Source: a virus
Virus record (IMG/VR): IMGVR_UViG_3300011115_000073
Location: 1-26,073 of that record
Length of the DNA: 26,073 nucleotides
Direction: 5' to 3' (one strand)
Positions 21,006-26,073 of this stretch are shown here, in pieces. Below the pieces are notes generated by a model. That model worked only from the letters and a program-made list of their open reading frames with translations. It was not told the origin of the DNA and did no database searches. How positions within the stretch are numbered: position 1 is the stretch's first letter; every line of letters starts with the position of its first letter. A program made the position numbers and the translations under genes.

Positions 21006-21351
21006 CTTCTTCCGTTGTCCTTTCAGCAATAAAGCCTAGTAGTTCTGGGTTGGCAAAGAATATTTGTGCCCATGCCATACCTAGGTTGTGAACTTGATGT
21101 TCTGTTAATTCTAAATGTAGTAAGTCACTGACAACATGTGTGACTTCATGTAGTAATGTGTCCAAGCACTGAATACCTTTGAGTTGATCTTGTATTCTAA
21201 TTTCGTTGTGTGCCAAATCTTGTTCACCAAACGCACTTGACATGATGCGTTGTGGGATCCACTGTATGTCCGTGACATTACCTAATATTTCTATTTGAGT
21301 ATATGTTGTAGGGTGAGGTGGATTAACCAGTTTGCGTGGTTGTGTTTTCAT
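20983..21351 (-). CDS. HExxH zinc-metallopeptidase-like protein (122 aa from the ATG at 21351; 148 aa if the GTG at 21429 is used)
   Basis: HEVTH at 21136-21150 was verified at nucleotide level (CAT GAA GTC ACA CAT). The context FGEQDLAHNEIRIQDQL...LDTLLHEVTHVV resembles ImmA/IrrE (M78)-type minimal peptidases. It is the first ORF after the switch terminator. Confidence 0.55.
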   Translation of the reverse strand: MKTQPRKLVNPPHPTTYTQIEILGNVTDIQWIPQRIMSSAFGEQDLAHNEIRIQDQLKGIQCLDTLLHEVTHVVSDLLHLELTEHQVHNLGMAWAQIFFANPELLGFIAERTTEEDERRIKR

Positions 21352-21494
21352 TTCTATGCAATCTCCAAGTCTATTCACATACTTACCTGGTGTAGAAAAG
21401 AAACTTGCTCTTAGCCGTGAAAATGCCACTTTTAGTCAATGGCGTTGACTGGGCTGTGGCCGCCAGGTCCTAAGGTAGATAGGATAACTTTATT

Positions 21495-21531
21495 TAAATA
21501 AAAAGGAAACCCCGTATCTCACGATAGGGGG
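21495..21531 (-). terminator. Strong intrinsic terminator between the early block and the late block
   Basis: The minus strand reads CCCCCUAUC-GUGA-GAUACGGGG (9-bp stem with one mismatch, GNRA tetraloop) followed by UUUCCUUUUUAUUU. Confidence 0.75.
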
Positions 21532-21586
21532 CTCCAGGATTTAATTACACACATTGCTAGGACCACACCACATAATCCCAGCAACT
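21497..21586 (-). ncRNA. Candidate ~90-nt leader RNA / sRNA bounded by a promoter and a terminator
   Basis: The predicted start is ~7 nt below the TATACT box. The 5' stem-loop is UUGCUGGGA-13 nt-UCCUAGCAA (21554-21584, 9 bp with one G-U). A linker and then the terminator hairpin follow. Confidence 0.35.
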
Positions 21587-21592
21587 ATATTT

Positions 21593-21621
21593 AGTATACT
21601 ACTTTTATGCGGGTATGTCAA
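21593..21621 (-). promoter_or_regulatory. Near-consensus sigma70-type promoter TTGACA-17 nt-TATACT
   Basis: The -35 TTGACA is at 21616-21621 and the -10 TATACT at 21593-21598 (minus-strand reading). The spacer was counted as 17 nt, and the upstream flank is AT-rich. Confidence 0.65.
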
Positions 21622-21625
21622 TGAA

Positions 21626-21689
21626 TTTTGATAAAACTTGATTTCTTTTCAAAAATTCAACTCTGATTAAATCTGATTTCTTTTCAGAG
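21626..21689 (-). repeat. Two tandem 29-nt hairpin/inverted-repeat units, 35-nt period, with compensatory stem changes
   Basis: Plus strand: ttttgataaaacttgatttcttttcaaaa (21626-21654) and ctctgattaaatctgatttcttttcagag (21661-21689). They share the core TGATTTCTTTTCA. The outer arms are TTTTGA/TCAAAA versus CTCTGA/TCAGAG. Confidence 0.7.
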
Positions 21690-21690
21690 T

Positions 21691-21945
21691 TTAACATTGT
21701 AATTTACGCACAAACTCTAGTTCTGGATCATGATAACTTATTTCTAATACGCTGTCTTGCACATTTCTAATACTAATAATGTCAACATCTGGCTGTCGTA
21801 TTGTTATTGTGCATAAGCCTAGGGCCTCATCAGCATAAAACTGGTTCAACACAGGATCATCAAATTCCACTTCTGAAACTATATTGGCTTTAAATTTTAC
21901 AAATGCTTGTAGTGCATCTTGTAGTGTTAAGGGGTATGTGAACAT
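21691..21945 (-). CDS. Hypothetical protein (84 aa), last early ORF
   Basis: The ATG at 21945 makes an ATGA-type overlap with the upstream ORF. No motif recognised. Confidence 0.6.
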   Translation of the reverse strand: MFTYPLTLQDALQAFVKFKANIVSEVEFDDPVLNQFYADEALGLCTITIRQPDVDIISIRNVQDSVLEISYHDPELEFVRKLQC

Positions 21946-25676: not shown

Positions 25677-25725
25677 TATAAATCGCTCCTAATTGTTGGT
25701 AATAACTACTGCTATCGTTTGGGCG

Positions 25726-25737
25726 ATAACATGTTAT
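25726..25737. promoter_or_regulatory. 12-bp perfect palindrome ATAACATGTTAT abutting the -10 box (operator candidate)
   Basis: The sequence is its own reverse complement. It covers the predicted transcription start of the proximal promoter. Confidence 0.5.
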
Positions 25738-25766
25738 ATTATACTTATCTTCAATATAAAAAACAA
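25738..25766 (-). promoter_or_regulatory. Early promoter candidate P-proximal: TTGTTT-17 nt-TATAAT
   Basis: The -10 TATAAT is at 25738-25743 and the -35 TTGTTT at 25761-25766 (minus-strand reading). The spacer was counted as 17 nt. It lies ~55 nt upstream of the first ATG. Confidence 0.5.
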
Positions 25767-25830
25767 GAGCCCTTATTCCCTGAACTTTCGCTCCTAATTG
25801 TTGGTAATAACTACTGCTATCGTTTGGGCG

Positions 25831-25842
25831 ATAACATGTTAT
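25831..25842. promoter_or_regulatory. Second copy of the ATAACATGTTAT palindrome
   Basis: Same position relative to the distal promoter copy. Confidence 0.5.
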
Positions 25843-25871
25843 ATTATACTTATCTTCAATATAAAAAACAA
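25843..25871 (-). promoter_or_regulatory. Early promoter candidate P-distal (duplicate copy)
   Basis: Identical sequence 105 bp upstream of the proximal copy. Confidence 0.45.
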
Positions 25872-25946
25872 GAGCCCTTATTCCCTGAACTTTTGCTCCG
25901 TTTGGTGAAATTGACCAAAATACCTGTAGTTGGATGTGAATACTGC

Positions 25947-26073
25947 AACAGGTTTGTATAAATATATCTATGCAAGTGAGCAATCCACTTGCTACTGGTT
26001 TGGTGAGTATCTCTCGTCGCTTGTTGGTAACATAATTTAATTGTAATAGGGAGGCCATCCTTATTACGCCAAA
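25947..26073. repeat. Right copy of the exact 127-bp terminal redundancy (identical to 1-127)
   Basis: Same as the left copy. It implies a circular or circularly permuted assembly, or a short direct terminal repeat. Confidence 0.97.

Follow-up and report, generated by a model that had tools for sequence, protein, structure and literature searches.

Between the early and the late genes of a small viral genome lies a compact unit composed of a strong promoter, a structured short RNA and an intrinsic terminator, which we analysed in IMG/VR record IMGVR_UViG_3300011115_000073 (positions 1 to 26,073; the whole stretch of 26,073 nucleotides (nt) is hereafter called the window). The unit, referred to here as the cassette, occupies the intergenic region between the gene of an 84-amino-acid (aa) protein, which ends the early module, and ~21 kb of late genes. 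All window genes are encoded on the minus strand, and coordinates are given on that strand unless noted otherwise. Invariant promoter hexamers together with RNA covariation indicate that the unit is functional. The first-pass annotation of this DNA had seen in the unit either a gate on late-gene transcription or the source of a phage small RNA, and on the sequence evidence assembled here both alternatives stand. Our leading interpretation, to which we give a probability of roughly 40%, is that the cassette forms the head of the late operon and follows the logic of lambda PR'-tR': passage through the terminator would depend on the RNA of a 5' stem-loop (SL1), and a short RNA would accumulate.

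A sigma70-type promoter, a stem-loop and a terminator precede the late genes

The elements listed in the first-pass annotation (promoter, stem-loop, -10-like GATTAT, mini open reading frame (ORF) and terminator) were all found where it had placed them, and several of its descriptions could be refined. The promoter consists of a -35 hexamer TTGACA (21621-21616) and a -10 hexamer TATACT (21598-21593) separated by 17 nt, with transcription predicted to start at about 21586/21585. Scoring 11/12, it is the top match on the coding strand; its earlier description as the best promoter of the genome holds for that strand but not genome-wide, as one plus-strand site inside a gene (1123-1152) reaches the same score. 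In the eight related units with enough upstream sequence, both hexamers are unchanged and the spacer is fixed at 17 nt, while the letters of the spacer differ widely. Hexamers 16-18 base pairs (bp) apart across a drifting spacer are thus what was found, and to judge from the alignment this is the classical signature of a working sigma70-type promoter.

On the coding strand, the interval from the terminator to TerL contains no sigma70-like site scoring 9/12 or more, and by this measure the 21 kb of late genes have no strong sigma70 promoter directed towards them other than that of the cassette. The statement that no other promoter precedes terS/terL therefore stands for the sigma70 type, but a different signal, TAARTA, follows the terminator and is found a second time 28 nt ahead of the first late gene.

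The 111-nt stretch downstream of the promoter folds at -36.4 kcal/mol (z = -4.4), and none of 200 shuffles folded as well. The transcript is predicted to be ~80-90 nt long, about 85 nt, and begins with SL1, which had been described as a 9-bp stem-loop. This core, in which UUGCUGGGA (21584-21576) pairs with UCCUAGCAA (21562-21554), is present, but the consensus fold extends it to 16 pairs, including G-U pairs, over 21587-21550. The GU-rich apex UUAUGUGGUGUGG (~21575-21563) is invariant apart from a 2-nt deletion in one relative (L006). It is followed by the single-stranded, GU/AU-rich linker UGUGUGUAAUUAAAUCCU (21549-21536, edges approximate), conserved in eight of nine members, and by the terminator hairpin GGAGCCCCCUAUCGUGAGAUACGGGGUUUCC (21535-21505), which carries a GUGA tetraloop and an internal C.C mismatch. 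Four plus four pairs flank this mismatch, and four outer pairs reach into the U-tract UUUCCUUUUUAUUU (21509-21496), which is interrupted by CC (UUUCCUUUUU). A simple terminator scan missed the hairpin because of the mismatch and the interrupted U-tract; in our own terminator scan its folding free energy (dG) of -16.1 ranks first on the coding strand. The earlier call of a GNRA-capped, strongest terminator is thus borne out on the coding strand, although its stem is not a perfect 9-bp helix.

A G+C-rich hairpin lies directly before a U-tract on the transcribed strand, as in an intrinsic terminator. Only one other strong coding-strand terminator was detected; it closes the late operon (243-214) and is alike in build. 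As had been noted before, transcripts of the early operon and of the cassette promoter both enter one intrinsic terminator ahead of the 21 kb of late genes.

The cassette RNA is conserved and covaries

Homologous units were found in nine distinct genomes: the window, L003, L001, L004, L006, L033, L113, L115 and L117 (L numbers denote related loci; the relatives come chiefly from lake metagenomes, and IMG samples such as 3300046000, 3300042393 and 3300048657 are among their sources). Compensatory double changes affect four pairs of the SL1 stem (CUGGGA/UCCUAG, UUAGAA/UUCUAA and UUAGAG/CUUUAA are examples), and 94% of the cells of this helix are paired. The terminator hairpin is identical in seven members. 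Those of L033 and L113 have another sequence with the fold kept and a GNRA or longer loop, adding three compensatory pairs. Conservation extends to the C.C mismatch and to the CC that interrupts the U-tract. Taken over the entire structure, the paired cells amount to 96.4%, and seven pairs carry double changes. With only nine related sequences and an alignment fitted to the model, the covariation score was 0.286, compared with 0.193 for shuffles (0/500 reached 0.286) and at most 0.11 for slid controls. An independent analysis of five sequences with MAFFT/RNAalifold agreed with this, yielding four compensatory pairs. Covariation analysis in related phages, which the first-pass annotation had suggested as a check, thus found compensatory changes above both the shuffled and the slid controls.

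No match to Rfam 15 was obtained for the whole window at the gathering threshold, and a lax search of 21300-21750 returned only a chance snoRNA match (E = 4.8). ARAGORN found no tRNA or tmRNA. The exact hairpin pattern had no match in 185,579 genomes; the SL1 pattern gave 57 genome and 11 new viral matches, all by chance, and the covariance model fits none of them. A blastn search of cultured phages with the cassette region was also negative. The cassette RNA was accordingly not found outside this phage group in the searches made. The invariant promoter, the covarying fold and the lack of an Rfam match together indicate, at the level of sequence, that the cassette RNA constitutes a new family of structured RNAs, equipped with a promoter and a terminator of its own.

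The unit appears accessory and modular

Comparison of related junctions indicates that the unit is accessory and modular. In L008-L011, L015 and others, the 84-aa gene is followed by the late genes within ~35 nt, without direct repeats, promoter or terminator. Among 68 assessable relatives, 24 have an intrinsic terminator in the 650 nt upstream of terS, in many cases 15-45 nt from the terS ATG. A promoter scoring at least 10/12 within 200 nt upstream of such a terminator was seen in this survey only in the window group, L012 and L092; L050 is arranged likewise. The leaders of L012, L092 and L050 are not homologous to the cassette, so that a promoter-leader-terminator order recurs at the same place with unrelated RNA.

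A covariance model detected diverged units in tandem in L033 and L012, and others in L041, L072 and L037 and at window positions 285-206. The last, which closes the late operon, comprises a stem-loop GUUAACAAC..GUUGUUGAC and a terminator AAGCCCUCAUGUCGUGAGACACUGGGGCUU followed by a U-tract; it resembles the units, characterised by the linker motif AUAGCAUA, that lie before terS in L012, L041, L072 and L033. More distant loci, L189 (= NCBI OX382913.1), L196 and L198, retain the stem-loop-linker-terminator architecture, and L189 has two terminators in series and no promoter ahead of its first late gene.

The U-tract is also an insertion hot spot. In L001 (3376-3925), L004 (1839-2420), L006 (2132-2700) and L113 (3448-4265), the insertion point of the morons is precisely at the U-tract and before the downstream TAAATA, which places the late genes behind two terminators. 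Each moron carries one or two small genes together with an extended -10 promoter (TGTTATAAT), an inverted repeat resembling an operator (GGCTACACAATGTAGTT) and a strong terminator, and that of L113 has an additional gene on the opposite strand. Short Logan contigs of other samples that stop here were considered as transcript ends and rejected, as they break at the mosaic junction (the U-tract point) and give no evidence of RNA ends. In some relatives a ~112-aa protein with an N-terminal GG-RPG-GRPKGS motif is encoded between the 84-aa gene and the cassette (L004 1181-1516, L006 1675-2028, L012 2998-3335, L201 804-941); its gene starts with TAAATA-N5-ATG.

Morons that bring their own terminators between the cassette and the late genes argue against simple leakiness and for processive read-through. 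They bear directly on the idea of a passive attenuator, in which an imperfect terminator would pass a fixed fraction of polymerases without any switch, SL1 would merely shield the 5' end of the late mRNA, and timing would come from genome copy number. The conserved C.C mismatch and CC-interrupted U-tract fit such a device, as do the failure to find a factor and the many relatives with a terminator alone before terS. However, two or more serial terminators, as in the moron-bearing relatives and L189, would multiply the loss of transcripts; the operon's closing terminator is equally imperfect, which points to house style rather than tuning; and a protective 5' hairpin needs no invariant apex. 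We regard a passive attenuator as unlikely.

A proposed model of terminator read-through

We propose that the cassette promoter would fire constitutively and that most transcripts would end at the terminator, so that the short RNA accumulates. Late genes would be expressed by polymerases that pass the cassette terminator and, in relatives, the moron terminators too. The ability to pass may be conferred through SL1 in a nut- or put-like manner, with either a small early protein or host factors only as the partner of SL1; in addition, the short RNA may have a trans-acting role like that of StxS. A nut/put-like role of SL1 is the most coherent version of this model, since the conserved specificity lies in the RNA and not in a DNA site. 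Two further observations favour read-through: the sole strong sigma70 promoter sits exactly at the head of the late genes, and L012, L092 and L050 carry promoter-leader-terminator arrangements at this very place that are not homologous to the cassette.

Several observations weigh against this model. The cassette is dispensable, as the late genes of L008, L010 and L015 directly follow the 84-aa gene, and about 44 of the 68 assessable relatives have no terminator at the junction. Homologues of the stem-loop and terminator occur without a sigma70 promoter in L189, L196, L198 and L041, and a unit stands at the 3' end of the window's late operon (285-206), where no switch is needed. No antiterminator candidate emerged from Pfam, PHROGs, NCBIfam and PDB sequence and fold searches, and no early protein co-occurs with the cassette among the relatives compared. 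Early transcripts would carry SL1 as well, which leaves an RNA-only mechanism without a temporal gate. Finally, the TAARTA signal after the terminator could be an independent late start, the only such candidate downstream.

The first-pass annotation had likened the layout to the lambdoid PR'-6S-tR' arrangement. What holds of this likeness is a promoter and terminator placed right before the late operon; a Q protein and a conserved pause element were not found. In a classical lambdoid scheme, a DNA-binding Q protein would load on a sigma-paused polymerase at a -10-like element. The order of promoter, short RNA, terminator and late operon agrees with this, as do the GATTAT at ~+10 to +15 of the window transcript (21577-21572) and the small gene immediately upstream. 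Yet the early and small proteins gave no match to Q- or N-like families in Pfam, PHROGs or NCBIfam, even at E-value thresholds of 1 to 5, in line with the earlier statement that nothing Q-like or N-like is encoded. GATTAT is present as described, but we rejected it as a conserved pause element: it falls on stem positions that covary, three of the nine members (L003, L115 and L006) have lost it, it changes as RNA pairs do, and even the NANNAT form is kept in only six of nine. The 84-aa protein, for its part, is acidic and without a structural match, and relatives that do not have the cassette retain it. The Q scheme is thus largely refuted and highly improbable.

Further lambda-type details are not supported either. 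The 10-codon mini-ORF MWCGPSNVCN (21573-21541) exists in the window and we judge it non-coding, because its length varies, its non-synonymous changes follow the stem, it has no Shine-Dalgarno (SD) sequence and it is absent in L006. The leader has no boxA (GCUCUUUA-like) sequence, and no small early protein is basic.

The TAARTA signal and a possible stand-alone small RNA

Every related unit starts with TAAATA, which in the window overlaps the end of the -10 hexamer (21593-21588). A second copy directly after the U-tract (21496-21491) marks the 5' edge of the conserved late leader, and a TAAGTA variant (21385-21380), invariant in the leader alignment, lies 28 nt upstream of the start codon with which the late genes begin. 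The coding strand of the window has eight TAAATA copies against ~22 expected, six of which are at gene junctions (21593-21588, 21496-21491, 19142-19137, 14638-14633, 5225-5220 and 2224-2219). TAAGTA is also found 4-28 nt before HExxH protein starts in otherwise non-homologous upstream regions.

These signals bear on a different explanation, in which the cassette is a stand-alone small-RNA gene and insulator: an early-class promoter would make a ~85-nt RNA, similar to the Hfq type, that acts in trans on targets in the host or the phage, and the early operon as well as this RNA would be ended efficiently at the terminator. The late genes would then have their start downstream, at TAAATA 21496-21491 and/or TAAGTA 21385-21380, and TAARTA could represent -35-independent promoters of a modified host polymerase. 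Several observations agree with it. In ~100 non-redundant related loci, TAAATA is strand-specific, with 222 occurrences outside ORFs compared with 33 for its reverse complement, and is ~8-fold denser outside than inside ORFs. In 38 cases an SD-less ATG that opens an ORF of at least 50 aa stands at a distance of exactly 5 nt after it, compared with 0-6 for composition-matched hexamers; the logo at these starts reads TAAATA-NNNN-T-ATG-G, with no -35 element. It also lies within 45 nt after 33 of 118 terminators, and mosaic and contig breakpoints fall at its 5' edge. The unit itself is self-contained, accessory and moron-like in distribution, its apex is under sequence selection, and units of the same architecture but without a sigma70 promoter always start with TAAATA. 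L189, with two tandem terminators and no promoter before its late genes, agrees with it too. A small-RNA gene explains well the dispensability of the cassette, the promoterless and operon-end units and the expected presence of SL1 on early transcripts.

On the other side, no target was found: the sole site in the phage complementary to the SL1 apex (21395-21383, 12/13 positions) is not conserved in relatives. TAAATA lacks the last-position T that a sigma70 -10 requires, and no sigma-like factor is encoded. On this reading TAARTA would have to be a new kind of promoter and would need a recognition factor. TAAATA is not late-specific, with 1.9 copies per kb upstream of terS and 2.2 per kb downstream, and we rejected it as a late-specific promoter on this ground. 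Hairpins are not generally enriched after it (18% against 8-16% in controls). Moreover, the leaders of L012, L092 and L050 are non-homologous, which fits a positional role better than a conserved trans-acting seed. We consider a stand-alone small-RNA gene possible, though less probable than SL1-dependent read-through.

By its sequence context, TAARTA could be a -35-independent start signal giving leaderless mRNAs, or a processing or translation signal. The distance from the T4 late promoter TATAAATA to the transcription start equals that from TAAATA to ATG; no gp55-like sigma factor is encoded in the window. A further composite occurs after the gene of a 183-aa protein (14670-14605), where a terminator-like hairpin AGCCCCCUACCCUGGGGGCU-UUGUCAUGGAC-TAAATA is followed by an SD sequence and ATG. 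As at the cassette, a terminator is joined here to TAAATA, and this site is probably an internal attenuator before the tail-assembly genes.

Direct repeats upstream of the promoter

Two direct repeats precede the promoter. The first, A/T-rich copy AATCAGATTTAATCA (21678-21664) may be either an UP-element-like sequence or a protein-binding site; the second, AATCAAGTTTTATCA (21643-21629), ends 7 nt before the -35 hexamer, a gap that is the same in L003. Exact copies of the motif occur only upstream of the cassette promoter, in the window group and in L005. A 30-nt deletion in L005 took the -35 hexamer and the spacer with it and left a stem-loop and a terminator in place; this locus was therefore not accepted as an independent promoter variant.

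The repeats raise the question of a DNA-level role, in which iteron-like repeats and a strong, quickly terminated promoter would make up a transcription-activated origin or a packaging site by terS. The confinement of the repeats to this promoter, the position between the replication module and the terminase genes and the G-rich transcript are compatible with that. Covariation, however, reflects selection on RNA pairing, the repeat spacing varies from 26 to 35 bp, L004 and L006 keep the cassette without the repeats, and no skew signal was found. A role at the DNA level is therefore very unlikely.

Genome context, late leader and flanking proteins

The window represents a complete, circularly closed genome of ~25,946 bp, as positions 1-127 are identical to 25947-26073 (a 127-bp terminal overlap). 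In minus-strand order, a non-coding region with a tandem repeat of 2 x 105 bp is followed by the early module (a 138-aa protein, a primase-polymerase-like protein, a D5/DUF5906-type helicase and 73-aa and 84-aa proteins), the cassette and the late genes (a small HExxH protein, terS, TerL, portal, scaffold, capsid, tape measure, tail and lysis). The source is a small, uncultured freshwater siphovirus, apparently lytic. Its nearest TerL proteins are only ~44% identical and belong to genomes that are built differently. Family scans of the window proteins detected no RNA polymerase, sigma factor, repressor or antiterminator family.

The tandem repeat is exact (25683-25892) and lies upstream of the first early gene. 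Each copy contains TTGTTT-17-TATAAT and a hairpin GUUAUCG..CGAUAGC, and the two are likely duplicated early promoters; a listed 163-aa ORF that spans the repeat is probably not a gene.

The 145 nt from the terminator to the first late ATG form a conserved structured leader (21499-21349) with two further hairpins and no Rfam match. Hairpin A (UCCUA..UAGGA) spans 21484-21468, and hairpin B (GCCAC..GUGGC, 21460-21425, then AUUUU) encloses an inner hairpin, which shows three compensatory pairs and invariant loops. The first late gene encodes the 122-aa HExxH protein (21351-20983). Its true ATG is at 21351-21349, with GGAG 11 nt upstream, and replaces a GTG at 21429 as the start, in line with gene calls and with L008-L011, which match the longer ORF only from residue 39-40. 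The AlphaFold model of this protein (predicted local distance difference test (pLDDT) 91) weakly matches the IrrE/PprI zinc-peptidase domain (ImmA/IrrE family) and minigluzincins. Judged by this model, the protein resembles a small zinc metalloprotease (a mini zincin of the ImmA/IrrE type) and not an antiterminator, among the candidates for which it had been listed. It is also encoded in a different phage type, away from terS (L192-L197).

The 84-aa protein (21945-21691), the last early gene product before the junction, had likewise been listed as an antiterminator candidate. It is acidic and has few homologues, and Foldseek found no match better than E = 0.5 for its AlphaFold model (pLDDT 76); with no structural relative, and present also in relatives lacking the cassette, it is not supported in that role. 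Similar proteins end the early module even in distant relatives (L014, L037 and L193), and the family shares an N-terminal M-x-x-YP-(L/I)-(T/S)-x-(R/Q)D and a C-terminal Y-x-(D/N)-PE-x-EF motif. On sequence grounds the family is a candidate late regulator. The 73-aa protein occurs in only some of the cassette-bearing genomes.

Discussion

Our results describe either the layout of promoter, short RNA and terminator known from late control, in a new form, or a new family of phage small RNAs. In lambda, the nut site consists of boxA and a 5-bp boxB hairpin with a GNRA-like pentaloop, and acts with the small arginine-rich N protein. The cassette has the same order of promoter, hairpin with a sequence-specific apex and terminator, and its specificity could likewise co-vary between phages. 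In contrast to nut, it has no boxA-like sequence and no arginine-rich small protein, and SL1 has 16 pairs and a GUGGU loop.

As in the lambdoid Q system, a strong constitutive promoter heads the late operon, a short transcript ends before the late genes and morons are tolerated downstream. The differences are that the cassette phage has neither a Q homologue nor a conserved pause element, that the conserved part is an RNA stem-loop, that the phage is a small, apparently lytic siphovirus and that the cassette is dispensable in close relatives. Lambdoid PR'-tR' also yields the small RNA StxS, itself a regulator (PMC7547250).

Antitermination without a protein factor is known from the put RNA of HK022, and stem I of putL contains a -10-like sequence (PMC9378689). 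The two stem-loops of put bind the zinc-binding domain of the polymerase beta' subunit and suppress terminators further downstream. The cassette resembles put in having a two-stem-loop RNA right after the promoter, and put needs no dedicated protein; in the cassette, however, the second stem-loop is a terminator with a U-tract, and neither similarity to put nor an Rfam match was detected. The conAn system of conjugative elements combines RNA and protein in a bipartite antitermination device (PMC8191782). Here too, the main promoter is followed at once by a terminator before a very long operon, and an RNA element is part of the device. Unlike the cassette, conAn belongs to other elements with another host range, and family scans found no homologue of its protein, although no specific search was made.

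Like Hfq-type small RNAs, the cassette RNA has a promoter to itself, is ~85 nt long, exposes a conserved segment and has an AU-rich stretch beside a Rho-independent terminator with a U tail. The cassette RNA differs from them in having no target or Rfam family that could be found and in its fixed position at the early/late junction. It is rather doubtful, though conceivable, that the unit is a new kind of phage regulatory RNA, be it a put-like antiterminator formed by SL1 or a small-RNA gene embedded in a TAARTA expression system not recognised before.

Late-gene control is understood in only a few model phages, and the phages carrying the cassette form an abundant, uncultured ~26-kb lake group with no recognisable transcription factor encoded. 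With ~130 bp, the cassette can be synthesised and provides a concrete object for probing the timing or dose of late expression. If TAARTA acts as a start signal, it would explain the expression of dozens of SD-less genes in these phages, and a bare element would define RNA 5' ends, including those of leaderless mRNAs, in small freshwater siphophages. If SL1 is put-like, the polymerases of one promoter would run through the whole series of terminators without a protein. The cassette would be either an RNA-based antitermination device outside the lambdoid phages or a new family of phage small RNAs.

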